Shown: positions 2-12,857, numbered from the stretch's first letter. The stretch: DNA of 64,000 bases from Planctomycetota bacterium (GCA_038227875.1 JBBRPR010000014.1:32001-96000); one strand, 5' to 3'. Notes: a model not told the origin generated them from the sequence alone. A program made the numbers and translations.

Positions 2-1345
2 CGTGACAATCCCAATCAGATCCCGTCGGGTCTCGCGAGCAGCACGCCGATTCCAGTGATCTACGCGGACTTCCTCGGTGCCGTCACGGCGCGCGTGGAC
101 AAGACGGCGCTGGCGGAATTCAAGACCGCGTTGCTCGCGGACCTTCCTCCATTCATTGATGTCAACGATCCCGTTCCCGAGAACAAGACACTCGGGGGTT
201 TGCTGCAGCAGAACAAGAAGCGTGCCATCGCGCTGATCGTCATTGCGCTGACGAAGTTTCCAGACCATTCGAAGTGGACGATCCTGCGCGCCTGCGGCGC
301 ACTCGACGCGGCGGAGCTCGATGAGCCGCTCGAGACCGTCGCGCTCACGGACACCAACGCGACGAACCGCGCGTTCGCGTTCAAGGCCATCGCGCAGCGC
401 AAACAGAAGAACGCCGCCGCGCTGCTCCAGGAAGGGTTGTTCGATCCGCAGCTGTCCATCCGCCTTCTGTGCATGGAACTGCTCAGCGAGGCGGGTGAGA
501 ATATTGGCAGCGTCACGGCGGTAATGCCTTGCCGTCCCCGGCACGCGTTTCAATTCCTCTTTTTGGAAACGGCGCTGAAGCGTGTCATGCCGACCATCGA
601 TGCGCCGACGTTCTTCAAGCAACCATTTTCCATCCGCTATGGTGCGTTCACGGGAGCTGCGCCGGAGGTCACCAAGTCGTTCGTCGCGCTGGCTGAAAAG
701 CGCGCGGACCGGCCGTACGCGGCGATGGTGCTCTATCTCTGCGGCGACGAGGTTGCGTCCGCCAAGGCGCTGGACACGCTGGTGAAAGTGATGCTGGAGA
801 ACGGCAAGAAGCCGGCCGATCACCGCTCGCCGGAATTCCAGATTCAATCGGATCTCGTCGATGTCTTTCAACAGAGCACTCCGGCGCAATTCAAAGCGAT
901 CCAGAAGATCTTCAAAACCAACCTGCGCGAATTCTCCGAGGAACGAGAAGCGCTGCTGACCACGCTGGCGTACGCGCAATCGGTCAGCGATGCGCCGGAC
1001 CTTGCCGACGATCTGCTCCGCGTGCGCGACATGCAGACCAGGAACAAGGATCTGCTGCTCGGCGCCGCGCTGGCGCTGGCTCATCATAAAAGTCCGCAGG
1101 CGATTCCATCGTTAATTCAAATCTTGAGCATGCGCTCAGACGCGTACACGGTCGTGGCGATTCAGACGCTTGAGAAACTAACCGGCATCGAGACGCCGGG
1201 CGTACCGCGTCCCGATCCGAAGACGGGCCAGTACGATCCGAAGGCCGCGTGGAACGTTCAGGGCGCGTACGACTTCTGGCGCAAGTGGATCCAGAATATG
1301 GATCACGACCTGCAGTTCGACGCCGAATCTCAGCACGTCAAGTAG
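2..1345 (+). CDS. HEAT-repeat protein, 5'-truncated by the window edge
   Basis: The frame of the 56..1345 ORF is open back to position 2. Helical HEAT/PBS-like motifs (DTNATNRAFAFKAIA, LFDPQLSIRLLCMELL, AIPSLIQIL...AIQTLEKLTG) and a W..W C-terminal segment. Confidence 0.6.
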   Translation, partial: RDNPNQIPSGLASSTPIPVIYADFLGAVTARVDKTALAEFKTALLADLPPFIDVNDPVPENKTLGGLLQQNKKRAIALIVIALTKFPDHSKWTILRACGALDAAELDEPLETVALTDTNATNRAFAFKAIAQRKQKNAAALLQEGLFDPQLSIRLLCMELLSEAGENIGSVTAVMPCRPRHAFQFLFLETALKRVMPTIDAPTFFKQPFSIRYGAFTGAAPEVTKSFVALAEKRADRPYAAMVLYLCGDEVASAKALDTLVKVMLENGKKPADHRSPEFQIQSDLVDVFQQSTPAQFKAIQKIFKTNLREFSEEREALLTTLAYAQSVSDAPDLADDLLRVRDMQTRNKDLLLGAALALAHHKSPQAIPSLIQILSMRSDAYTVVAIQTLEKLTGIETPGVPRPDPKTGQYDPKAAWNVQGAYDFWRKWIQNMDHDLQFDAESQHVK

Positions 1346-1346
1346 G

Positions 1347-1715
1347 CTACAGTACGTTGATCGTTCCCGAGCGCTTGTACTGCGCGAGTACCTTGCGGAC
1401 ACGCCGGCGGAGTTTTAGATCCGGATCGTTCCACATGCGTTCGATCGCCGCGACGATCTCCTCGTGCCGTTCGTTGGGCGAACCGTCGCAGAGTGTGTGC
1501 AGCACATGGCTGCGTATTGTGGCATCCGGATCGGCCGACATCTCAATCATGCGGTCCCACACACGCGGATGATTGGCTTTGAGATGGCACGGACAAAGAT
1601 TCCGCACGGCCGCTTTGCGTACGCGGATGTCCTGGTCCTGCGTCAGGGTGAGGAACTCCGCGATATCGTCGCTGTCGACGGAAACTTCAACGTAGCAGGA
1701 ATTGCGCGTGCTCAT
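1347..1715 (-). CDS. small HEAT-repeat protein with LCPCH and LCDGSP motifs
   Basis: 122 aa; three HEAT-like units (DQDIRVRKAAVRNL, DPDATIRSHVLHTL, DPDLKLRRRVRKVL); GAGG RBS upstream. Confidence 0.75.
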   Translation of the reverse strand: MSTRNSCYVEVSVDSDDIAEFLTLTQDQDIRVRKAAVRNLCPCHLKANHPRVWDRMIEMSADPDATIRSHVLHTLCDGSPNERHEEIVAAIERMWNDPDLKLRRRVRKVLAQYKRSGTINVL

Positions 1716-1790
1716 CGGGGACCCTCAAATTCCAGTCCCCTCAACTAAACACACGAATCGAGCATTGTCAATTCGGGCCTGTGTCCGACA

Positions 1791-1814
1791 CCAGGTATTA
1801 AATTTAATACCTGG
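1791..1814. promoter_or_regulatory. perfect 24-bp palindrome, candidate operator
   Basis: CCAGGTATTAAATTTAATACCTGG is its own reverse complement; intergenic, about 75 bp upstream of the 1715 start. Confidence 0.5.
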
Positions 1815-1844
1815 CAAAAACTAACAACTTGCCGCGCGTCGCTA

Positions 1845-4800
1845 TTAATGCGCGTGGGCGTGCGCGTCATGGCCGTGCGCGTGTTCATCGTGACCGTGGC
1901 CGTGTGCGGCTTCCATCGACGGCGTCGACTCGGAGACGGCAATGGAGTGATGGTCGTCGTGAACCGGAGCGGGCGCCGGCGGCTCTTCGCCGCTGCCGTC
2001 GTCGCGGACGTGCGCGGCTTCGTAGCCGTAGGCCTGCGCAAGCACCTGGATCGGGTGGAGCGTCTTCTTCTCCGCGCCGTGTTCCATCTGCATGCGGCAG
2101 CACGAGCTCTCGCTCATCGCGTACTCGATGCCTTTACGCTCGTCCTTGAGCTGTTCGAAGAGCTTCTTGCCGATCCACATCGACTCGTCGTAGTTCTTTT
2201 TGATCATTCCCCACATCGACGGATTGCCGCAACATCCGTGGTCGAGCTGCACGACCTTGACACCGGGGACCAGCTTGACCAGGTCGATGCCCGGCGTGCC
2301 GATATGCAGCGACTTGTGATGGCAGGCCTGATGGTAGCCGACGACCGCATCGACCTTCTGGAAATTGGTCTTCAGCTTGCGCTCGCTTTTCAGCTTCATC
2401 AGGAACTGGCCGATCTCGTATGTGTGGCGCGCGACGGCGCGCGTCTCGGGGGTGTCGACGTAGGTCAGGAAATCTTCCTGCAGGCACATGCAGGCTGTAG
2501 CGTCGAGCGCGACAATCGGGATGCCCTTGAACGCGTACGGCGCGAGCACTCCGGCGACTTTCGTCACGTGTTCGCGGCTGGCTTCGACCGCGCCTTCGCT
2601 CAGCGTGGGGCTCTTGCACCACGGCGCGTCGGGAAGGTCAACTTCGAAGCCGTGGTGTTCGAGGACATCGATGGCAGCCTGGGCCAGTTGCGGATTGCAG
2701 TACTTGGCGTCGAGATCGAGATAGAGCACCGCCTTCGGGCGGTCGGAACCGGGGGAGGGCATGTAGCGGCGCTGCGGACGCCAGCGCTTGAGCTGCGGAA
2801 GCTTGTAGCGATGGTCGATCCCCGTCACGGCTTCGCGGATCATGCGCGCGGGCAGGGTGTTGACCAGCGAATTGAAGAGTGGCGACACGTATGAGGCCGC
2901 GCGGAAAACGTCCTCCATGCTGGAGAGCGCCACAGTGCTCGCGGGCAGACTGTTGGACTGGTAGTGGCGCGCCTTGGCTTCGAGCACGAGCTTGGGGATA
3001 TTGACGTTTGACGGGCAACCGTCGTGGCAGAGCTTGCAGTTGAAACACGTGTTCATGACTTCCAGCAGCTCTTCGCTGCCGAACGATCCGCCGACCTGCC
3101 GGCCGGTCATCATGCGGCGCAGGACGTTGGCCTTGGCGCGTGGCGACGCGTCTTCAATGCGTTCGTACTTGAAGCGCGGACACATCTCTTCTTCAGGTCC
3201 GGTCGTGCGGCAGTAACCGCAGCCGTTGCAGCTCTCGGCTTCCTTGGCCATCTCGGCGCCGGCCCACTTTAGGGGCGAGCCGCCGTGGACGTGGACTTCG
3301 GCGCTGCTGGTGGCGATGCGTTCGACGGTACCTTCGGTGCGCACGGCCGTCTGCGATTTGAACATGCGGAAGTTCGCGGCCTGCGTCGGGTCGATGGAGC
3401 TGGGCTTCGGCCGTTCGCCGGTGCTGAACTGGTAGGCCGCGCCGAGGCGCAGGTTCTTGAGCATGAGATGCGCATCGGCCGTGATCTTCTTCTGCGGATT
3501 GAGCAGGCCGGACGGATCGAAGATCGATTTCAGTTCCTTGAAGACGGCGTAGAGTTCCTTGCCGGCCTGTTTTTCGAGCCACTGCGAGCGGGCGAGGCCT
3601 TCACCGTGCGTGCCGGAGATGGTGCCGCCGACTTCCCAGACCGCCGCGTGAATTTCGCCGGCGACCTTTTCGAGGATGTCGAGGTGTTCCTTCTGATGCA
3701 GATCCATCATCGGCATCAGATGCACTTCGCCCTGGCCAGCGTTGGCCCAGGCGCTCCATTCGAGCTTGTACTTCTCGCAGATCTTCCCGGCCTTCTCAAT
3801 GTATGCGGCGAGCTTGTCGAGCGGCACGACGGCGTCTTCGACGACCGGCACCGGCTGCAGGTTGTCCTTGCGGCGGTAGAGCATGGACGTGCCGGCGACG
3901 CGCGCGGCCCAGATTTTCGCTTCCTGTTCCGGCTCCATCACGCGTCGCGACTTCACGTGCGGAATTTCCTTGAGCTTGGCTTCGACGGCGGTGAGGCGAT
4001 CGGTGACGTCGGCTTCGGCTTGGCCTTCGAATTCGAGAATCAGCACAGCCTTCGCGCTTTCGGGCACGGCGAATTCCTGCGGCGCGGCCTGGCGGCGCAG
4101 CAGCATCATCTTTTCATCCAGCATCTCGCAGCCGAACGGATTGAGCGCGCGCAGAGCCGGGACGGCCTTGGCGGCGTCGAGCAGCGTCTTGAAGTAAACT
4201 TCGAGCATGCCGATGCGTTCAGGAAGCGGATGAACCTTCAGCACCGCCTGCGTGACGATGCCGAGCGTGCCTTCGCTGCCGCAGAGGACGCGCGAGAGGT
4301 CGTAGACTTCTCCCGAGACAACGCCATCGACCAAATAGCCGGCGCGGTTGCGTTCGGTCTTCACGGCTTTCGAGGCGATCAGCGCGGCGTTTTTCTGGAG
4401 CAGCGCGGGAACTTCGCGGTGGACCTTGCCGCTCAAGCCTTCTTCGCGCTTCTTGCCTTCGATATCGGCGCCGGCGAGTTTCACCGGATTGGCCAGCGTG
4501 ACGGTGCCGTCCATCAGGCAGAGGCGCGCACCGACGAGATTCTTGCGCGTATCGCCGTAGAACGCGGAGTGCGGGCCGGAACCGTTGCGCGCGATCATGC
4601 CGCCCACGGTGGAGCGGTTGCCGTTGAGAGGATCGGGGCCGACGCGGAAGCCGTGGGGCTTAAGCGCGCGGTTGAGGCTGTCGAGCACCACGCCGGTCTG
4701 CACGGTGACCTGCTTGCGGCCTTTATCCAGTTCGATGATGCCCTTCATGTACACGGACAGATCGACGATGATGCCCTTGGCCAGCGATTCGCCGGTGACG

Positions 4801-5048
4801 CCCGAGCCGCTGCCGCGCGCGACAACCGGGATGCCGTGCTTCTGGCCAAACCACATGCAGCTGCGCACATCCAGTTCGTCCAGCGGATGGACGACCAGCA
4901 GCGGTTCGATCTCGTAGATTGAGCCGTCGGTGGCGTACATGCTGCGCGTGAACGGATCGTCGTAGACGTCGCCTTTCACCATCTCGCGCAGGGCGCGGGC
5001 GAGCGTGCTGGGTGAACGATCGAGAATGTCGGATGTGGCCAGGGACAT
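1845..5048 (-). CDS. FAD-binding and (Fe-S)-binding oxidoreductase (GlcD/YdiJ-like: FAD_binding_4, FAD-oxidase_C, 2x4Fe-4S, CCG) with His-rich tail
   Basis: YATDGSIY, GSEGTLG, VEDAVVP, FDPSGLLNP, CNGCGYC..MCP, CFNCKLCHDGCP, GCCG; C-terminus HGHGHDEHAHGHDAHAHAH. Confidence 0.9.
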   Translation of the reverse strand: MSLATSDILDRSPSTLARALREMVKGDVYDDPFTRSMYATDGSIYEIEPLLVVHPLDELDVRSCMWFGQKHGIPVVARGSGSGVTGESLAKGIIVDLSVYMKGIIELDKGRKQVTVQTGVVLDSLNRALKPHGFRVGPDPLNGNRSTVGGMIARNGSGPHSAFYGDTRKNLVGARLCLMDGTVTLANPVKLAGADIEGKKREEGLSGKVHREVPALLQKNAALIASKAVKTERNRAGYLVDGVVSGEVYDLSRVLCGSEGTLGIVTQAVLKVHPLPERIGMLEVYFKTLLDAAKAVPALRALNPFGCEMLDEKMMLLRRQAAPQEFAVPESAKAVLILEFEGQAEADVTDRLTAVEAKLKEIPHVKSRRVMEPEQEAKIWAARVAGTSMLYRRKDNLQPVPVVEDAVVPLDKLAAYIEKAGKICEKYKLEWSAWANAGQGEVHLMPMMDLHQKEHLDILEKVAGEIHAAVWEVGGTISGTHGEGLARSQWLEKQAGKELYAVFKELKSIFDPSGLLNPQKKITADAHLMLKNLRLGAAYQFSTGERPKPSSIDPTQAANFRMFKSQTAVRTEGTVERIATSSAEVHVHGGSPLKWAGAEMAKEAESCNGCGYCRTTGPEEEMCPRFKYERIEDASPRAKANVLRRMMTGRQVGGSFGSEELLEVMNTCFNCKLCHDGCPSNVNIPKLVLEAKARHYQSNSLPASTVALSSMEDVFRAASYVSPLFNSLVNTLPARMIREAVTGIDHRYKLPQLKRWRPQRRYMPSPGSDRPKAVLYLDLDAKYCNPQLAQAAIDVLEHHGFEVDLPDAPWCKSPTLSEGAVEASREHVTKVAGVLAPYAFKGIPIVALDATACMCLQEDFLTYVDTPETRAVARHTYEIGQFLMKLKSERKLKTNFQKVDAVVGYHQACHHKSLHIGTPGIDLVKLVPGVKVVQLDHGCCGNPSMWGMIKKNYDESMWIGKKLFEQLKDERKGIEYAMSESSCCRMQMEHGAEKKTLHPIQVLAQAYGYEAAHVRDDGSGEEPPAPAPVHDDHHSIAVSESTPSMEAAHGHGHDEHAHGHDAHAHAH

Positions 5049-5050
5049 GG

Positions 5051-5632
5051 TTACTCCTCTTTTATCGATACTTTCCTGAAGCGGTCTTCAACTGCGTGCT
5101 GCGCCAGGATCCAGTCAACGGCTTCCGGCAGGGTTGGCGCGAGCAGGTCGGGCACGTATTCCTTCTTCAAGTTCGCCGGGTTGGGCAGATTCTCGCGGCA
5201 CAGAATCGTGCGGCAGCCGGCAGCTTTTCCCATCTCGATGTCGCGCCCCGAATCGCCGATCACAAAACTGGCGGCCGGGTTGAGTCGGTGTTCCTTGCAC
5301 GCGTTCTGAATCATCCGCGGCGACGGCTTTCGGCAACCGCAGGCGTCGTCGGGATGATGCGGGCAGAAGTAGACCGCATCGAACGCCTGTTCCCCCAAGT
5401 GCCCCTGCATGCGCGCATGGATGTCGTGCAAGGCTTCCAGCGGCATCAACCCTCTTCCCACGCCGCTCTGATTGGTGATCAGCGCGATGAAGAAGTCCTG
5501 CTTGCGAAGCCGGATCAGTTGTTCGGCCACGCCGGGCATGAACTGAAACATCTCCCAGGACAACACAAACTGCCCCGGCCCCGGAAAAACGTTGACTACC
5601 CCGTCGCGGTCGAAGAACACGGCATGACGCAT
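5051..5632 (-). CDS. gmhB: D-glycero-D-manno-heptose 1,7-bisphosphate phosphatase-like HAD IIIA hydrolase
   Basis: FFDRDGVVN, ITNQSG, CPHH..CGCRKP and GDSGRD motifs are all intact. Confidence 0.85.
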   Translation of the reverse strand: MRHAVFFDRDGVVNVFPGPGQFVLSWEMFQFMPGVAEQLIRLRKQDFFIALITNQSGVGRGLMPLEALHDIHARMQGHLGEQAFDAVYFCPHHPDDACGCRKPSPRMIQNACKEHRLNPAASFVIGDSGRDIEMGKAAGCRTILCRENLPNPANLKKEYVPDLLAPTLPEAVDWILAQHAVEDRFRKVSIKEE

Positions 5633-5694
5633 GGACGTTTGCTCTCGTTGGTGTCACAGCCATTGTCGACCATAAGCCCAAGTGCTGCAAGTGC

Positions 5695-5842
5695 GGCTCT
5701 TGGTTGCGACTTGGTGCCAGTGCCGTGGCCTGACAGATACACGATCTGTGCTTCCACTGCGATCGCACTGGCAGGCCGGACTTTCACTCCGCTCAAGTCC
5801 GTCCGTGCCAGTGGCAACTCATCCCGCCAGGCCCCAAGAGCC
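5695..5842. repeat. intergenic REP-like nested stem-loop
   Basis: CACTGGCA (5766) pairs with TGCCAGTG (5806), with inner CGGACTT/AAGTCCG arms; outer GGCTCTTGG (5695) pairs with CCAAGAGCC (5834). Confidence 0.5.
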
Positions 5843-5856
5843 AAGAGCTGCCCTAT

Positions 5857-7500
5857 CTAGTTCTCCACAACTCCCACGCCACGGCACGGGAAGATCTGCG
5901 CGGTCAGCGCGGTCGCTTCGAGCTGGCGCGGCAGGTAGTAGGCGCTGTTCAGGTTCTCGACAAGCATCTTGTAGCTCTCGAGTTTGCAGAGGATCGCGAC
6001 ACGCTGCGTGCCGGACCAGCGGGCGGCGAGGACGCCGGGAACGTTCAGGGCCAGATCGCAGAGCAGATCGGTTTCCAGCGAACTACCAGCAGAGCGGCCC
6101 GACTGACGCCAGAGCGGGTCGCCGTGTTCGGACATCGAGAGCAGTTCGTCGTCGCCGGTGCCGTGGAGGATCGGGCGGACGGATTCGACGCGGCCACTGG
6201 CGGTCAGTTCGTGGGAAACGGACGCTTCGCCCACCTGGCCGATGTTCATGAACGCAGCGATGCGGCCGAGATCGGCGTGGCGCAGGGCGTCACCGGCGCG
6301 GGCGGCGCGCTGGAGTTCAGCGAAGACGAAGAGTAGCTTTTCACGCGGGAAGTAGCCCTGCTTCGGATCGGGATGCTGCGTGAAGCGCTGCTTCAAATCC
6401 TTGGCGAACGACTCGGCGAGTCCGGATTCGAGTGCCGCGGAACGGGAGATGGCCTGCGGGATCTTCGTCAGCAGTTCCAGCAGCAGTTCGTCGGGCATGG
6501 TGAAGTCGCGGCCCGCGTCGGCGGTCGAGAGGCGCTTGAGCGCTTCCTTCTGGAAAAGAGCCATGCCGATCTGCGTGGTCGTCGCGCGGTAGCTGCCGTG
6601 ACCGGCGGGAGAGGCGTCGGGCACTCCGGCGTGAGCGATGACCAGGCAATGTCCGGCAAGCGTCGCCTTGGTCTTGGCGCGCGCGGGGCTGCGGCCTGCG
6701 TAGGTCAGTTCGTTGGGCATGCCGAAGAGCACCGAGCCCATGCTGCTGCGGCGGCCGGCGCAGCCCGACTGCGCTTCCGCGCACCAGCCGGCGAATTCGG
6801 CGAGCGGAATCTTGGCCCATTCGCCCGACGCGGCGGCGATCGAAGCCAGCGTGGCAGCGACGAGCGTGGTGTCCGAGTGCGACGTGTAGCCGGGCGGCAG
6901 AATGCTGCCGACGACGATGTTCAGGCCGGGAATGTTGAGCTCGACTTGTCCCGTCGGTCCCTTGTGGCGGTTGACGTAGTAGACCAGCGCGGCCTTCAGC
7001 GGCGCCGACCATCCGGTCGCGGCGCCGAAATTCTCAGCGGCGTAGGTGCGCCAATCCAGCGCGCGGGTTTTTGGCGCGGATGCAAAGAGATCAAATTCCA
7101 CCGGCGCGAACTGACCATCGACGTGCGCGACGGTGATCTTCTTGTCCGTGCGCGGCGAGACGCAGAGAACCGTCTCGTAACACGCGGCGCTGAGCGTCGA
7201 GCCGCCGAAGTCTTCGAGATGAAGTCCGACCAGGTCCAGGCTTTCCGGCGCGCGCATCAGGAAACATTTGGTGCCGTCGCCATGGAGCTCCGCGAACTTC
7301 TTCACCAGCGCCGTGTAAAGGTCGAGAACCTTGTTCTCAAACTTGGCCGGCGATTCATCGACCAGGCCGTGGTTGAGCTGGATCTTCGAAAGTATCAGCG
7401 TGCCGGGGACGCCGGGTTGCAACATCAACTGCCACATCTTCGGTGAACGCAGCGACGACAGCGGGACGATCGGTTCATTGCAGACAATCGGATTGGACAT
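5857..7500 (-). CDS. galactokinase-like GHMP-fold protein with degenerate catalytic motifs
   Basis: RAPESLDLVGLHLEDFGG aligns with RAPGRVNLIGEHTDY.GG; GHMP-like C-terminal part (AELQRA...GDAL, SSLETDLLCDLALNVPGVLAAR); the PxGxGLSSS loop appears as PPGYTSHSD. Confidence 0.7.
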   Translation of the reverse strand: MSNPIVCNEPIVPLSSLRSPKMWQLMLQPGVPGTLILSKIQLNHGLVDESPAKFENKVLDLYTALVKKFAELHGDGTKCFLMRAPESLDLVGLHLEDFGGSTLSAACYETVLCVSPRTDKKITVAHVDGQFAPVEFDLFASAPKTRALDWRTYAAENFGAATGWSAPLKAALVYYVNRHKGPTGQVELNIPGLNIVVGSILPPGYTSHSDTTLVAATLASIAAASGEWAKIPLAEFAGWCAEAQSGCAGRRSSMGSVLFGMPNELTYAGRSPARAKTKATLAGHCLVIAHAGVPDASPAGHGSYRATTTQIGMALFQKEALKRLSTADAGRDFTMPDELLLELLTKIPQAISRSAALESGLAESFAKDLKQRFTQHPDPKQGYFPREKLLFVFAELQRAARAGDALRHADLGRIAAFMNIGQVGEASVSHELTASGRVESVRPILHGTGDDELLSMSEHGDPLWRQSGRSAGSSLETDLLCDLALNVPGVLAARWSGTQRVAILCKLESYKMLVENLNSAYYLPRQLEATALTAQIFPCRGVGVVEN

Positions 7501-7565
7501 TGACTCGTAGACTCTCCTGGACAGCCCTTAGTTGCTGGGAATGGAAGTGAAAGGTGTCGAAAGCA

Positions 7566-8537
7566 TTATGCCTTGGCCAGCTCGTGGATGCACTTCAAGA
7601 TCGAGGCTTCCGAGGGCAGCGCGGCCGGTGTGCAGACCGGCACATCCAGCGCGCATTCGCGGCGGATCGGCGCATCGAGATCGTCGAAGCCGTGTTCCAT
7701 GATGCGCATCGCCAGTTCGCTGCTGAAGCCGCCATTGGACGGTGCATCGGCACAGAGCAGCAGGCGGCCGGTTTTCTTGAGCGATTCGAGCACGCAGACG
7801 AGGTCGACCGGCGTGAGCGTGCGCAGGTCGATCAACTCTGTTTGAATGCCGGACTGCGCCGCCGCTTTCTCGCACGCCGCGGCCGCTTTGCGGATGACGC
7901 TGCCGTAGCCGACGACGGTGAGGTCCTTGCCGCGGCGCAGCACGCGTGCGAGGCCGAAGGGAATTTCTGGAATCGCGACGGCGGTGTCTCCGCTGATGGC
8001 GTAGAGCTCCGGGAATTCAAAGAGCACCACCGGATTATCGTTGCCGTGGAGCGCGGTGCGCAGCAGGCCGCAGGCATCGGCGGAGGAAGAAGGGGAGGCG
8101 ACGAGCAGGCCGGGCACGTGCGTGCACCAGGATTCCCAGCCGTGAGTGCTATTGGACGCAGGTTCGGTGAGCACGCGGAGCGTGATCGGCGCGGCGAGCT
8201 GGCCGGAGGTCAGCCACGCCGTGCGGGTCGCGCCGGCGGCCAGGGAATCGAGCGCAAACGGGAGATCGTCGGGCGAGGAGAGTTCCACGACCGGTCGGTA
8301 ACCGCAGAGCGCCGCGCCGACGGCCGCAGAGACCAGCGCCGCGGCGCTGGCCGGCGAACTGCGGATGCGTTCAGCGCTGAATTTGTCGCGGAGTTCGCGG
8401 TAGACGGACCCGGCGTCACTGGGATGCGAATGGGCGGAGTCTTCACCGTGGATGAGCACAATCTTGGCGTTGGCGCGCATCTCGCGAGCCAGCGTGGTGA
8501 CCAGCAGATGTTCCTGAGTTTGCGTGTGTTCGCTCAT
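7566..8537 (-). CDS. 2-oxoacid dehydrogenase E1-beta-like protein (transketolase PYR + C-terminal domains), degenerate active site
   Basis: GED, GAALCGYRPVVE, VPGLLVASPS, NPVVLFE, IPFGLARVLRRGKDLTVVGYG, ELIDLRTLTPVD, KKTGR, FDDLDAPIRR. ATG at 8537 gives 323 aa, a typical E1-beta length. Confidence 0.85.
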   Translation of the reverse strand: MSEHTQTQEHLLVTTLAREMRANAKIVLIHGEDSAHSHPSDAGSVYRELRDKFSAERIRSSPASAAALVSAAVGAALCGYRPVVELSSPDDLPFALDSLAAGATRTAWLTSGQLAAPITLRVLTEPASNSTHGWESWCTHVPGLLVASPSSSADACGLLRTALHGNDNPVVLFEFPELYAISGDTAVAIPEIPFGLARVLRRGKDLTVVGYGSVIRKAAAACEKAAAQSGIQTELIDLRTLTPVDLVCVLESLKKTGRLLLCADAPSNGGFSSELAMRIMEHGFDDLDAPIRRECALDVPVCTPAALPSEASILKCIHELAKA

Positions 8538-8773
8538 CGCGGCGCCAGCGAGCCCATTGCGTAAAGTTGACGTAAGTTGTGTAACAGATTGGGCGGGCGG
8601 ATCAACGGTAACGGCGGTTTTGGTGGGGGGCAGTAAATCACCGCTAACGACCAAAGACCCCAACGCAACATCCCGCGATAGACCATGGGAAATAGGGTGT
8701 ACTTATAAGAATTCGATAAGCTGCTCGCGTTGGTGTGTGTATCAGCAAATCCAGTCGACCATTTAATCCTATG

Positions 8774-10288
8774 TCATGGCAACGGGCTGATGGATATGTT
8801 GCCGGTGACCGACTCGATTCGAAGTTGGTGTGAGCCATCGCCGAGCGTGCCGTCAATTTTCTCACCGATATCATATTCACGCTTCTTTGCCTGAATCAGA
8901 CCCGGCACCGAACATTTAGCGCTGCCGTTGTTGCTCTCCGCATGGACTTTGGCGTTCAACGTGGGAGACAACCGCAGCCGGATCGAGCCGTTGCTTGCTT
9001 CAATTTTGGTGTCATCGGCAAGTACGGAGATATCGGCGGTGATGCTGCCGGTCACGCTCACTAATTTTTTGATTCCCGACGGCCCGGAGATGTCGATGCT
9101 GCCGTTTGACGCACTGGCCTCGATCAATCCGCCGCAGTTCTCCAGGCGAATCTTTCCCGTGATGCTTTCCAGGCGACCGGTCTGGGCAACGTCGCTGAGC
9201 TGAATGCCGCCATTGGACGCCGACGCGCTGGCCAGGCTGGCGGCGTTCTGAACTCGAATGGCGCCGGTCACCGTCGACAACGGGCCCACGTGTTTGGCGC
9301 CGCGAATCTGGATGCCCCCGTTGGAGGCTTCGGCGCTTTCCACGTCGCCCACGTCGCTGACGCGAATGGCGCCCGTGACGGAGGAGAGTTTGCCTGTGCC
9401 CTGGGTGCGCGCAATTTCAATGCTGCCGTTGGAGCACGAGGCGGTCACCACGCCCCGCAAGCCGTCCATTCGAATGGTTCCGGTGGTGGATTCCAGCACG
9501 GGTGTGCCGGCTGAGCCTACCACGTTAATATCCCCGGTGGATGTACGTACGTTGCCCAGGTTTCCGTTCCTGGGGATTCCAATCTCGTAGTCCACGTTGA
9601 ACAGAAGCGTGCTGTCCTTCGACTCCGTCCTGACGCTGACGTCGCCGTTGGCCTGTGTGCTCACGCGAACCGTGACGTTCTTGAGTGCATCCTTGTCCGC
9701 GCCGGCGGCGGCGGGTTCCAGGAGCCGCTTGCCGTTGATGATAATGATGGAGTTGACGCTGCCGGCATTTCCCAGCACGCTTTTGATGGCGTGAATGGTG
9801 AGTTGGTTGCCATCGATCTCTTTGATGCTGATCGTGCCACAAGTATTTTCCACGTGCAGCGCAGCGCGCGGACTCAGCGGGACTGTGGTCTCGAAAACGT
9901 CGGCGGTGGCGGTGGGGCTCGTGGGGTCAGCGATGTCAGCCTTCTCGGCGGGCTTCGGCGGCACGTCACGGTCCTCTTCAGCGACTGTCGTGCGCGAGTG
10001 ATCGGGGTTTGCGCCTTTGGCCACGGGAGTGGCCGGTTTGCGTCCCCACACCAGCGCCAGCCCGAGCATCAAGGCGACGAGCGCCGCGACGGCAATGGTC
10101 GGCCAGGCGGAAACCGCTTCTTCGCGCCGCGGCAAGGCATCGCCACTGGGCTCGTTCTGAAGACGCAGGCGCAACTGTGCCAGGCGGGCAGACGAGGGGA
10201 TCGTTTCCCGATCCGCGTCCCACCGCTGCAGTGCGCGTTGCAGCGCGGCCTGTTCCGGTTTTGAAAGATCCGTTTCGTCGGCGTTCAT
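8774..10288 (-). CDS. membrane-anchored DUF4097-type beta-repeat protein, probable anti-sigma factor
   Basis: Short N-terminal domain, one TM helix (WPTIAVAALVALMLGLALVW), then alternating SxTGxI / SNGxI repeats; 4-nt overlap with the ECF gene. Confidence 0.75.
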   Translation of the reverse strand: MNADETDLSKPEQAALQRALQRWDADRETIPSSARLAQLRLRLQNEPSGDALPRREEAVSAWPTIAVAALVALMLGLALVWGRKPATPVAKGANPDHSRTTVAEEDRDVPPKPAEKADIADPTSPTATADVFETTVPLSPRAALHVENTCGTISIKEIDGNQLTIHAIKSVLGNAGSVNSIIIINGKRLLEPAAAGADKDALKNVTVRVSTQANGDVSVRTESKDSTLLFNVDYEIGIPRNGNLGNVRTSTGDINVVGSAGTPVLESTTGTIRMDGLRGVVTASCSNGSIEIARTQGTGKLSSVTGAIRVSDVGDVESAEASNGGIQIRGAKHVGPLSTVTGAIRVQNAASLASASASNGGIQLSDVAQTGRLESITGKIRLENCGGLIEASASNGSIDISGPSGIKKLVSVTGSITADISVLADDTKIEASNGSIRLRLSPTLNAKVHAESNNGSAKCSVPGLIQAKKREYDIGEKIDGTLGDGSHQLRIESVTGNISISPLP

Positions 10289-10878
10289 GATTTGTGCTCC
10301 GGAGAAAGCAGCGTCCGCAGTTCTGCAATGGCGCGAAAAAGGCGCACCCGCACGTTGACGCCGGAATCGCCGATGATGCGGCCAATCTGCGCCGGCTCAA
10401 GATCGTGGAAAAACCGCAGTACCACGATTTCCCGCGCGGCCGCCGGTAATTTCTCAATCGCGGCCGTGACACGGCCGGCGTCTTCCAATGCCACGATCAT
10501 CTCATCGGGCGAAAGAGCCGGTTGCTGTCGCATCGGCGAGGGGTCGGAGGCGTGATCGAATTCCAGTTCCCCCCGCGCGCGCCGTTTGCGCAGCAGGCTC
10601 AGCGCCGTGTTGCGCGCGATGCAAAGCACCCAGGTGTCAAAGGACTGCCCGTCGCCGTCAAAGTTCGCCAGGTTTTTAAGCACCTGCAGCAGCGTGTCCT
10701 GAGTCACATCGTCGGACGCCGCTTTCTGCCGGACGATCGCGCGCGCCAGCGCGTGGATGCGGGGTTCCTGGCGTTCAATGATCTGCTCCAGCGCGGCATC
10801 GTCGCCGGACCGAGCCAGCGTCAATATCCTTGCCTGTTCCGCGGCGGAGGGCTCCTGAGGTCTGTTCATCGTGAGCAT
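10285..10878 (-). CDS. ECF RNA polymerase sigma factor
   Basis: Region 2 (DDVTQDTLLQV, FDTWVLCIARN) and region 4 (LPAAAREIVVLRFFHDL..IG..VRVRLFRA). Confidence 0.9.
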   Translation of the reverse strand: MLTMNRPQEPSAAEQARILTLARSGDDAALEQIIERQEPRIHALARAIVRQKAASDDVTQDTLLQVLKNLANFDGDGQSFDTWVLCIARNTALSLLRKRRARGELEFDHASDPSPMRQQPALSPDEMIVALEDAGRVTAAIEKLPAAAREIVVLRFFHDLEPAQIGRIIGDSGVNVRVRLFRAIAELRTLLSPEHKS

Positions 10879-11043
10879 ATGTTAGTGTCGTGATCCATTG
10901 CCGTGAAATTTTCTTTGTACAAATGAGTCTTCACGCAAGCCAACGCGCCAGCGCGCGCAGCGTTTCAAAATCCATGAAAAAAGAGACAGGGGACCTATTG
11001 ATTCTCACATGGTGCAACGCAACATGGGAGAAAGGACAATTCG

Positions 11044-11655
11044 TCAGGCGCCGCGCTTCCGGCTTTTTTGCATCTGGATAAAGAGCCAGACGCCGGCAGC
11101 GAGACTGAACAGCATCGACGCATGGCCGAGCATCCGCACCATCAGGCCGAGGCCTTCGCAGTGTTCGATCAGGCCGAAGTGCGAGAAGAGCCAGTGCCAA
11201 TCGTGGATGATGATGCCGTCGCCGCCTTCGGCCGAAACCAGCGGCAGGGCTTGGGCTCGGGCGTCCTGCATGTAGACGGACATGCTGACCAGATTGGTGC
11301 TCAGCCAGCCGAAGCAGAACGAGATCGCGAAATAGTCGCGCTGCTTGAGGAACATGAACATCGAGAAGATCGGCGCGGCGAGCTGCAGAATCGTACCGCC
11401 GGCGACATGAAAAAATTCACCGAAGGGGCGGAAGAGCAGATGGCCGCCTTCGTGGATCGGCAGATTTAAACTCTGCAGCGCATTCCAGCTCTCGGGCTCT
11501 TTGAATTGAGAGAACCCCAGCCACGCGGTGTAGAGCCACAGGATCGCGCGGATTTCCCAGCTGCGGCCCTTGCACCAATCGAGGATGTCTTCATAGAGCC
11601 CCGCGGCGAATTCGCTGACGCGCGTGCCGAAATCCGTTTCGCCGCTTCGGCTCAT
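11044..11655 (-). CDS. membrane protein with HExGH motif (M50-like metalloprotease family)
   Basis: IHEGGHLLF..FG, GGTILQL and HDW motifs; several TM helices; ATG at 11655 overlaps the gluQ stop (ATGA). Confidence 0.7.
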   Translation of the reverse strand: MSRSGETDFGTRVSEFAAGLYEDILDWCKGRSWEIRAILWLYTAWLGFSQFKEPESWNALQSLNLPIHEGGHLLFRPFGEFFHVAGGTILQLAAPIFSMFMFLKQRDYFAISFCFGWLSTNLVSMSVYMQDARAQALPLVSAEGGDGIIIHDWHWLFSHFGLIEHCEGLGLMVRMLGHASMLFSLAAGVWLFIQMQKSRKRGA

Positions 11656-12620
11656 TTTTTCGGCTGCTCCAGTTCGGCAAGTTTCTCGGGCGTCAACACC
11701 ACGCGCTCGCGGTTGACGGTACTCCACGACCACAGCGGGAGCAAATCGCGCGGCATCGCCGACGAGCCGCACGGCAGGCCCGACCAGCGCGCCAGCGTGG
11801 CGATAATGTGCGAGGGGGCGATGCCCGCCGCGCGGAGACTGGCGATGCGCGCGTCGCCGTGGCGCTTGGCCAGGCGCTTGCCGTCCGGTCCGACGACGAG
11901 TGGGACGTGGCCGAACCTGGGGATCGGCGCGCCGAGCAGCCGGTAGAGGAGAATCTGTCGGCCGGTGCTGGAGATCAAGTCGTCGCCGCGCACTACTTCA
12001 GTGACATTCATGGCGATGTCGTCGGCGACGACGGCCAGCTGATAGGCCGGATTGTCCGGACCTTTCGCGACGATAAAGTCGCCGATGGTATTGTACACGT
12101 CGATGGCGTGCGGGCCGCTGAGCAGATCCGTGTAGTCAACGCGACCAGGATCGACTTTGAGGCGCCACGCCGGCGCGCGGCCGGTGGGCGAAGCGGCGAT
12201 GGCGCTGGCTTCGTCGGCGAACTTCCCGCGGCAGAGGCCGGGGTAGCGCAATTCGCCCTCGGAGTCCGCGTCGCCTTCGTGCGGGGCACTCTGCGCCGCG
12301 GCGATGTCGCCGCGTGTGCAGATGCAGGGGTAGATCGCGCCGATTGCGCGGAGTCGCTCATGGATCTGCAGGTAATAGGCGCGCCGCTGAGTCTGGACGC
12401 AGCCGTCGGGGCCTTCGTCCCAGTCAAAGCCGAGCCACGTCAGGTCGTCGAGCATTTTCTCGGTGACACCGGGCTTGACGCGCGGCGAATCAAGATCCTC
12501 GACACGCATGATCACGCGCCCGTTTTGCGCGCGCGCGGAAAGCCACGCCCAGAGAAACGTCCGGATGTTTCCGAGATGGAGCGCGCCGGTGGGGGATGGC
12601 GCCAACCGGGAAGTGATCAT
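11652..12620 (-). CDS. gluQ: glutamyl-Q tRNA(Asp) synthetase
   Basis: RLAPSPTGALHLGN, RVEDLD, CICTR, YPGLCR, AYQLAVVADD, VRGDDL, RLAKR; no anticodon-binding domain. Confidence 0.9.
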   Translation of the reverse strand: MITSRLAPSPTGALHLGNIRTFLWAWLSARAQNGRVIMRVEDLDSPRVKPGVTEKMLDDLTWLGFDWDEGPDGCVQTQRRAYYLQIHERLRAIGAIYPCICTRGDIAAAQSAPHEGDADSEGELRYPGLCRGKFADEASAIAASPTGRAPAWRLKVDPGRVDYTDLLSGPHAIDVYNTIGDFIVAKGPDNPAYQLAVVADDIAMNVTEVVRGDDLISSTGRQILLYRLLGAPIPRFGHVPLVVGPDGKRLAKRHGDARIASLRAAGIAPSHIIATLARWSGLPCGSSAMPRDLLPLWSWSTVNRERVVLTPEKLAELEQPKK

Positions 12621-12680
12621 TTTCCATTTTCCATCGGTCATTTTCCATTTTCCATCGGACCGGCAGCGCGCCGATGGAAA
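12621..12680. repeat. heptamer (TTTCCAT) tandem repeat with short hairpin
   Basis: TTTCCAT x2, CGGTCAT, TTTCCAT x2; TTTCCATCGG pairs with CCGATGGAAA at 12671. Confidence 0.8.
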
Positions 12681-12857
12681 GAGACGTTGTGTGTCAGGGA
12701 GCAAGCGGCTGTTTGCTTGCTCCCTGCTCAAACGCTACGCATACAGAATTCGGCGCACTTCCGCCATGCGAAATCGAATCCGCTGGCGCGAAAAGTCGCG
12801 CGCAACAGCAAGAAGCAAGCATACGGCCGCTTGCTCCTTGACACACAGACCCGTCTC

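Follow-up and report, generated by a model that had tools for sequence, protein, structure and literature searches.

We examined a 64,000-nt stretch of DNA from a Planctomycetota bacterium (the window, contig C14:32001-96000 of genome G000, which comprises 9.3 Mb in 176 contigs and is 88% complete). Four co-directional open reading frames (ORFs) lie at positions 1845-8537 on the minus strand and encode, in order of transcription, an E1-beta-like protein, a protein with a galactokinase (GHMP) fold, a HAD-IIIA phosphatase and a protein that joins an FAD-linked oxidase to iron-sulphur modules (FAD/Fe-S protein or flavoprotein). An earlier reading of this DNA, referred to here as the original prediction, saw three apparent pseudoenzymes around an intact gmhB gene. 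As we describe below, the four genes are better regarded as two separately conserved gene pairs that happen to adjoin, with members of both pairs having lost residues that their catalytically canonical relatives keep.

The E1-beta-like and kinase-fold genes are 65 nt apart, a 224-nt spacer (5633-5856) follows, and the stop of the HAD gene is 2 nt from the start of the FAD/Fe-S gene. The G+C content at third codon positions (GC3) is 0.77-0.83 in the four genes and 0.75-0.79 in neighbouring genes, and the original description of full-length ORFs with normal codon use is confirmed. A scan of 1300-11200 found no promoter-like site, and 11 terminator-like sites against 9.6 expected.

Table 1 Genes at the locus and other features, with the coding variants found among the best-supported 40 of 517 substitutions. 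The crude ratio of non-synonymous to synonymous polymorphism (pN/pS) takes synonymous to non-synonymous sites as about 1 to 3.
Feature	Position	Strand	Product	Synonymous	Non-synonymous	Crude pN/pS
E1-beta-like gene	7566-8537	-	323 aa; start is the ATG given in the original prediction	4	1	0.09
Galactokinase (GHMP)-fold gene ("kinase-fold")	5857-7500	-	547 aa	7	1	0.05
HAD-IIIA phosphatase gene, GmhB/histidinol-phosphatase type	5051-5632	-	193 aa	6	0	0
FAD-linked oxidase + 2x[4Fe-4S] + CCG fusion gene, YdiJ-like architecture	1845-5048	-	1067 aa	12	6	0.15
His-rich C-terminal tail of the FAD/Fe-S protein	1845-1910	-				
Orphan E1-alpha-like gene, outside the window	C2:199417-200853 (L058:5418-6854)	-	478 aa			
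DUF4097 'toastrack' gene	8774-10288	-	504 aa			
Extracytoplasmic function (ECF) sigma factor gene	10285-10878	-				
ORF with tRNA-synthetase catalytic domain	11652-12731		359 aa			

The E1-beta-like protein matches Pfam Transketolase_C (94.9 bits) and, weakly, Transket_pyr (41.5 bits), both above the cut-offs. It fails the NCBIfam model for the E1-beta subunit of pyruvate dehydrogenase (PDH) (NF006667, 199.2 bits against a cut-off of 321), which its orthologue in a genome of the sister genus (G001) passes with 373.2 bits. Motif columns were compared with those of solved E1-beta chains, paralogues from the same genome, and 22 database relatives, which were the closest ones and four distant outgroup rows chosen from the best 120 of 2347 matches, leaving out a 180-aa fragment (P0040) and P0053. 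The Glu of the TPISE motif in the Pyr domain activates thiamine diphosphate (ThDP) and is essential. In the E1-beta-like protein this Glu is Ala (SPASA), AQHSQS has become SNSTHG, and four residues are deleted. In the 22-row alignment, the Glu-to-Ala change is found in all seven sequences of 74-100% identity, and the seven sister sequences of 45-49% identity, including the G001 orthologue, are fully canonical. Four other rows are intermediate or degenerate, P0045 having kept the Glu and lost HSQ, and P0049, P0050 and P0051 being without the Glu.

In a maximum-likelihood tree, the degenerate E1-beta clade is monophyletic (99/97), and a long stem (0.48 + 0.53 changes per site) leads to inner branches that are short, 0.02-0.11. 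Identity to the outgroup in the Pyr domain is 38% for the degenerate clade and 60% for its canonical sister clade; in the C-terminal domain it is 40% versus 44%. Only the Pyr domain is accelerated; the C-terminal domain is well conserved. Between G000 and G001, the E1-beta-like orthologues are 48% identical, compared with 78% for the housekeeping PDH E1-beta.

No alpha gene adjoins the E1-beta-like gene at the locus. The genome has six E1_dh matches, five of which are in split PDH genes or fused alpha-beta genes, and the sixth is the orphan E1-alpha-like gene of Table 1. It scores 76.5 bits with PF00676, and its G001 orthologue scores 276 bits; the two proteins align end to end at 36% identity and have N- and C-terminal peculiarities in common. 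Where the alpha subunits of G001, G019 and the G000 PDH have HRGHGH, GKGGSMH, FFGDGAANNG, CENN and YRYRGHS, the orphan has EWRHGL, TNGATPP, FCTPNDLAKG, FPE with a 6-residue gap, and PAAPKAS. In G000 the ThDP site has thus lost its two halves, which G001 keeps in canonical form. The orphan gene adjoins genes for NAD(P)H-hydrate dehydratase and 2-keto-3-deoxy-6-phosphogluconate aldolase.

Alpha and beta appear in the same state in each of the genomes compared. In G008, which belongs to the same family and is 89% complete, the two orthologues are also unlinked and both degenerate, and no kinase-fold gene was found in that 89%-complete genome. In G018, an order-level relative, canonical alpha and beta genes lie side by side, within the limits of a short contig. 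Counting G000 and G001, both subunits are dead in two genomes and both canonical in two, with no mixed case in this small sample of related genomes. We infer that the whole second E1 of G000 is catalytically dead, because the E1-alpha-like partner is also without the ThDP/Mg motif. This degenerate alpha partner, encoded in the same genome as the E1-beta-like protein, is new here, and it contradicts, for E1, the suggestion that the proteins serve as non-catalytic partners for active paralogues.

The kinase-fold protein matches no Pfam family at E 0.01 or better, including GalKase_gal_bdg, GHMP_kinases_N and GHMP_kinases_C, and its sole profile trace is an N-terminal resemblance to galK, which is weak (E about 1e-4). 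A homology search at E 0.001 or better gave 29 such proteins, 28 besides the query, and all organism labels given for them are Planctomycetota. When 25 of the 29 were aligned (short or partial P0019, P0020, P0030 and P0032 were left out), identity to the query was 43-86% with about 65 invariant columns, among them charged residues and the motif NRHKGPTGQ(I/V)E. An AlphaFold2 (AF2) model built from the family alignment (predicted local distance difference score, pLDDT, 87.8; predicted template-modelling score, pTM, 0.88) matches yeast Gal1p, human GALK2, Gal3p and GALK1 in Foldseek with E of 1e-19 to 1e-16, TM of 0.60-0.76 (0.64-0.76 when normalised to the target) and identity of 15-18%. The protein is predicted by this model to have the two-domain GHMP fold.

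Kinase motifs were read from two alignments, one a profile alignment with human GALK1 and the other a collinear BLASTP alignment with a 545-aa homologue of genome G026, which is 26% identical to the query over 512 columns and matches all three Pfam domains named above. The kinase sequence GRINLLGMHIDH is replaced by ESLDLVGLHLED, the phosphate loop of motif II, SSGLSSSSS, by PGYTSHSDT, GGGGDH by RRSSMG, and GAGLGGC of motif III, defined as TGAGxGG, by GTQR and a 3-residue gap. Motifs I, II and III are replaced, the position of the catalytic Asp is not conserved, and the kinase motifs are absent from all 25 aligned members. The ancestor of the family was probably a sugar-1-kinase of about 545 aa, because the G026 homologue has the three GHMP/galactokinase domains and its gene adjoins a GlmU-like hexapeptide/nucleotidyltransferase gene (L019:3021-5778, G026:C81). 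These two G026 genes probably serve together in sugar-1-phosphate salvage. A canonical kinase of the ~545-aa type is absent from G000, the sole other match being at E 6.7e-5.

The phosphatase has the HAD-IIIA motifs I-IV (DRDGV, TNQSG, RKP and GDSGRD) and the Cys/His zinc motif (CPHH...CGC), all intact. It passes the HAD-IIIA and histidinol-phosphatase-domain cut-offs (TIGR01662, TIGR01656), and its best NCBIfam match is a GmhB model, NF006506. It fails the cut-offs of both GmhB models, with 140.2 against 178 bits for NF006506 and 106.7 against 149.6 bits for TIGR00213. What was called an intact gmhB is therefore intact in its motifs and falls below the thresholds for that name, and on these scores 'GmhB' is a family-level label only. 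A role as a lipopolysaccharide (LPS)-heptose enzyme is unsupported and was rejected because the conserved partner of the gene is a flavoprotein and because G000 encodes two further HAD-IIIA proteins of the GmhB type.

The FAD/Fe-S protein matches Pfam FAD_binding_4 (125.6 bits), FAD-oxidase_C (164.4 bits), Fer4 (4Fe-4S dicluster) and CCG; both CxxCxxC...CP motifs and the CCG motifs are intact. It scores 404.8 bits with the YdiJ equivalog model NF049975 and fails the 1350-bit cut-off. G000 encodes one other FAD-oxidase_C protein, on C36. Positions of the metal-site residues were taken from an alignment with LctD, glycolate oxidase and mouse LDHD. According to passages of a study on mouse LDHD (PMC10589216), H398, H405 and E442 bind Mn2+, and Ala mutants of R347, H398, H405, E442 and H443 are all inactive. 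In the FAD/Fe-S protein H398 is replaced by N436 and E442 by T480, and the equivalents of R347, H405 and H443 are kept, i.e. three of the five. Among 151 sequences (the query and 150 family representatives), the first His is present in 145, the second His in 137, and the Glu in 124.

The metal-site comparison took in 4 representatives and the 36 closest database relatives. Asn and Thr occur together solely in P0303 and P0304 (81-82% identity), Thr alone in P0305 and P0308 (72-73%), and a 69%-identity relative has the Thr with Leu for the first His. Other, non-uniform replacements are found in P0306, P0307 and P0314-P0316 (57-69%), and from P0309 (63%) downward the rows are mostly canonical, with scattered degenerate ones (P0330, P0154, P0337 and P0338). 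The G001 orthologue (59% identity) is canonical. Among the genome orthologues that cover the metal site, 10 of 11 are canonical; one of the ten, L091, is from an unpublished genome (G017), and the conclusion holds without it. The remaining orthologue, L087 (G004:C124), has undergone an independent, heavier degeneration of the metal site (YGPLGLGTPRL, GTSCGGYAEGL), P0154 has the same pattern, and no HAD gene is present in the 1.5-kb flank of L087.

From these alignments, we call the FAD/Fe-S protein remodelled at the metal site rather than generally degenerate, because its clade is hardly accelerated (identity to the outgroup 38% vs 41%), conservation within the clade is highest in the FAD-binding domain (87%), and the Fe-S/CCG motifs are intact. 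Three pseudoenzymes had been proposed; the E1-beta-like, kinase-fold and FAD/Fe-S proteins all lack residues that their relatives keep, but the last does not share the broad degeneration. Two side observations concern the same protein family. The C-terminal tail of the FAD/Fe-S protein is His-rich (HGHGHDEHAHGHDAHAHAH) and may bind metal, and the tail of the G001 orthologue is also rich in His, Asp and Glu. Another orthologue, L092 (G003:C306), has an in-frame TGA at query Cys811 (PW[C/TGA]) in the first CCG-type region, which may encode selenocysteine or mark a broken gene, and a second stop (TAG) in the C-terminal tail of the match.

The two halves of the locus have different distributions. 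The kinase-fold gene is found in 6 of the 41 genomes searched, G000 included, and its family spans at least three genera; the FAD gene is found in 13 of the 41, many without the kinase-fold gene. G001 carries the two pairs apart, with E1-beta next to the kinase-fold gene on C165 and HAD next to FAD on C8. Seven kinase-fold/E1-beta protein pairs come from equal-sized contigs. Seventeen kinase-fold loci, several of them duplicates, were collected by a profile scan of genome contigs (5; the four known loci and a spurious 63-residue Armatimonadota match, L045) and a metagenome scan (12) that did not return the closest relatives of 72-86% identity. E1-beta is directly upstream of the kinase-fold gene at four distinct loci (L041=L047, L046, L048 and L055), is absent at L042, L043=L050, L044=L053=L054, L051 and L052, and cannot be judged at L049, L056 and L057. 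Where E1-beta is absent, the other neighbours vary and no partner recurs. A HAD or FAD gene is present at none of the 17 loci in the two scans.

The FAD gene has the HAD gene directly upstream at 7 of 12 orthologous loci, in families f1 and f3, with 48-71% identity, and the HAD genes so paired keep their catalytic and Zn motifs. The other five have flanks of only 1.5 kb or are cut, which limits what they say about a HAD neighbour. The HAD/FAD pair occurs without kinase-fold or E1 genes in genera g3, g4, g5 and g7, and genus g10 has the kinase-fold gene without E1-beta-like or FAD orthologues. As for gene order, each pair is separately syntenic, and the four-gene order is not found in G001.

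Signs of selection were sought by aligning contigs from four runs of other samples, short and of low depth, to the stretch, and by taking the best-supported variants, 40 of the 517 substitutions and 12 of the 48 indels. Of these 40 substitutions 37 are in genes, 29 being synonymous and 8 non-synonymous. The in-gene ones among the 12 indels add up to multiples of three (-3 at 4487, and -9 in one contig at 6164-6177), and all single-base indels are in the 5633-5856 spacer. Because the variants are mostly synonymous, they indicate purifying selection on these genes. The G000 and G001 orthologues are 48-60% identical in amino-acid sequence. The general marks of a pseudoenzyme, namely homology, catalytic-residue loss and purifying selection, are all seen here, the last from the 37 coding variants. 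The claim that the losses are not random decay is borne out, as the substitutions are common to close relatives, the best-supported variants are mostly synonymous, and the in-gene indels keep the frame. How far the losses are conserved is another matter: the original prediction would be refuted by orthologues that retain the canonical residues, and the G001 orthologues of the E1-beta and FAD proteins do so.

We conceive that two unrelated, separately conserved gene pairs adjoin at this locus, and that members of both have lost canonical catalysis stepwise and are yet kept by selection; we give this reading a probability of roughly 55%. Pair 1 would consist of the E1-beta-like gene, derived from a second PDH-type E1 whose beta and unlinked alpha subunits are both without the residues that bind or activate ThDP in this genus, and the GHMP-fold gene, derived from the ~545-aa sugar-1-kinase type. 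Pair 1 would most likely give a ThDP-free complex of alpha2beta2-like form whose role is non-catalytic, in binding or regulation, and the GHMP-fold protein could serve it as a Gal3p-style ligand-binding partner. Pair 2 is a two-gene unit widespread in this bacterial order, made up of the GmhB-like phosphatase and the FAD/Fe-S dehydrogenase. With His and Glu of its Mn/Zn site changed to Asn and Thr in this genus, and with its FAD, Fe-S and CCG parts still constrained, the flavoprotein has probably lost D-2-hydroxyacid oxidation and may have kept or changed its redox role.

The losses would have occurred first in the kinase-fold family, then in both subunits of the orphan E1, then at the flavoprotein Glu and last at the flavoprotein His, the proteins becoming constrained again after each loss. 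Our verdict from the comparisons is that these are real, conserved pseudoenzymes or remodelled enzymes. For the E1 and the kinase-fold protein a non-catalytic role is best supported; in the flavoprotein's case, a changed redox role and the absence of one seem equally likely.

Several points weigh against this reading. The flavoprotein clade is barely accelerated, and its Asn and Thr could still ligate metal, so that the protein may be active on another substrate. The many invariant polar residues of the kinase-fold family fit a ligand-binding site and a new active site equally well. The sample of variants is small and preselected, and the contigs may mix strains or species. All three degenerate proteins (P0005, P0034 and P0304) share a contig size, 31,853 nt, solely in the closest relative, so that the three genes appear, judging by equal size, to share a contig there and only there. 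Since the degenerations fall in the same lineage and the pairs adjoin in G000 and probably in this closest relative, there is some room for a functional link between them.

An alternative, which we hold possible and rather unlikely, is that the proteins are still enzymes with altered chemistry, the FAD/Fe-S protein using another substrate or working independently of metal and the GHMP-fold protein having a new active site. The conserved FAD-binding domain, the intact Fe-S/CCG cysteines and the slight acceleration would fit this, as would the fact that the clade-specific FAD/Fe-S substitutions are themselves conserved and the invariant columns of the GHMP-fold family with their charged residues. 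However, H398A and E442A abolish mouse LDHD activity (PMC10589216), and the differing replacements in P0306, P0307 and P0314-P0316 look like relaxed constraint rather than one new design. The GHMP phosphate-binding motif II and motif III are gone, and for E1, where both ThDP-binding halves are lost, altered chemistry is inapplicable.

The original prediction suggested one integrated non-catalytic module for metabolite sensing or scaffolding; the ECF sigma and DUF4097 genes upstream might control it. All genes are adjacent and co-directional in G000, the closest relative seems to have all three on one contig, and the E1 and FAD degenerations both occurred on the G000 lineage, G001 being canonical for both. 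Against these stand the placement of the two pairs on different G001 contigs, the lack of HAD/FAD genes at all 17 other kinase-fold loci, and phyletic patterns that differ, with the FAD pair alone in four genera, the kinase-fold gene alone in g10 and a dead E1 in G008, where no kinase-fold gene was found. The losses came one after another rather than together, the pairs have a 224-nt spacer between them, and in G001 neither the ECF nor the DUF4097 gene adjoins the pair. We consider such a module improbable, and support for it outside the closest relative is nil. Its fuller form, in which a ThDP-free E1, a motif-less ligand binder of galactokinase fold and a flavo-Fe-S protein that has lost its metal site work together and successive active-site death marks recruitment, is still less probable. 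Slow decay, with the genes as functionless relics awaiting disruption, draws on the loss of catalytic residues from several genes in one lineage and on the low G000/G001 identity of E1-beta relative to its housekeeping counterpart, and is very unlikely given full-length ORFs with normal GC3, a kinase-fold family kept across genera, a degenerate E1-beta clade with short inner branches after its long stem, and the mostly synonymous variants and frame-keeping indels among the best supported.

Upstream of the E1-beta-like gene by 236 nt and co-directional with it are the DUF4097 and ECF sigma genes, which overlap each other by 4 nt and look like a sigma/anti-sigma-like pair. Farther away, the product of the ORF at 11652-12731 has the class-I Glu/Gln tRNA-synthetase catalytic domain alone (PF00749, 160.8 bits) and is a truncated GluRS-like protein, possibly of the GluQRS type.

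Bacterial pseudoenzymes outside kinases are little studied, and a literature search gave no paper on pseudoenzymes in Planctomycetes or on thiamine-type pseudoenzymes of this kind. The locus offers a clear natural progression, for which public metagenomes hold dated intermediates: a two-subunit ThDP enzyme without the cofactor site in both of its unlinked subunits and yet conserved, a galactokinase-fold family without kinase motifs in any aligned member, and a flavo-Fe-S dehydrogenase with a remodelled metal site. It is also a warning for annotation. Homology would name all three as active enzymes, and the source annotations of their relatives read 'galactokinase', 'E1 component' and 'FAD/FMN-containing dehydrogenase'.

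Compared with known systems, the E1-beta-like protein has the same two-domain beta as the alpha2beta2 E1 of the PDH and branched-chain ketoacid dehydrogenase (BCKDH) types, matching the chains 1ik6, 1um9, 3duf and 1w85 with E of 1e-35 to 1e-40, and an alpha-type partner is likewise encoded in the genome. It differs in that the beta is without the ThDP-activating Glu and HSQ and the alpha without the GDG...NN Mg-ThDP motif, and in that the two genes are unlinked, the beta gene adjoining a GHMP-fold gene. A dead homologue retained by selection, as seems to be the case here, is also seen in dead-paralogue regulators such as the trypanosome AdoMetDC prozyme (PMC5201418). That prozyme activates a live paralogue, whereas here both E1 subunits would be dead and no live partner is indicated.

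The FAD/Fe-S protein has the same fusion as YdiJ, the D-2-hydroxyglutarate dehydrogenase of E. coli, in which a GlcD-like FAD domain precedes a GlpC-like Fe-S/CCG half, according to passages of PMC9504171. With YdiJ, LDHD, GlcD and LctD it has the R347, H405 and H443 equivalents in common, and it differs from them in the Asn and Thr at the H398 and E442 positions and in its conserved partner, a HAD-IIIA phosphatase gene. The phosphatase in turn shares the HAD-IIIA core and the Cys/His zinc motif with GmhB (D-glycero-D-manno-heptose-1,7-bisphosphate phosphatase), and unlike it has a flavoprotein gene, not a heptose-pathway gene, as its conserved neighbour.

A known parallel in fold is Gal3p of yeast, which senses galactose and ATP without kinase activity; XOL-1 is a further one. 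The galactokinase fold is common to Gal3p and our kinase-fold protein, with the Gal3p chains 3v2u and 3v5r among the top structural matches, and canonical kinase function would be absent from both. Gal3p keeps almost all GHMP motifs, however, and in the bacterial kinase-fold family motifs I-III are replaced wholesale; identity is 15-18%. Gal3p has Gal80p as a partner, and no such partner is known for the kinase-fold family. If the dead E1 or the GHMP-fold protein binds ligands or partners, the locus would provide a bacterial counterpart to Gal3p-type sensors.

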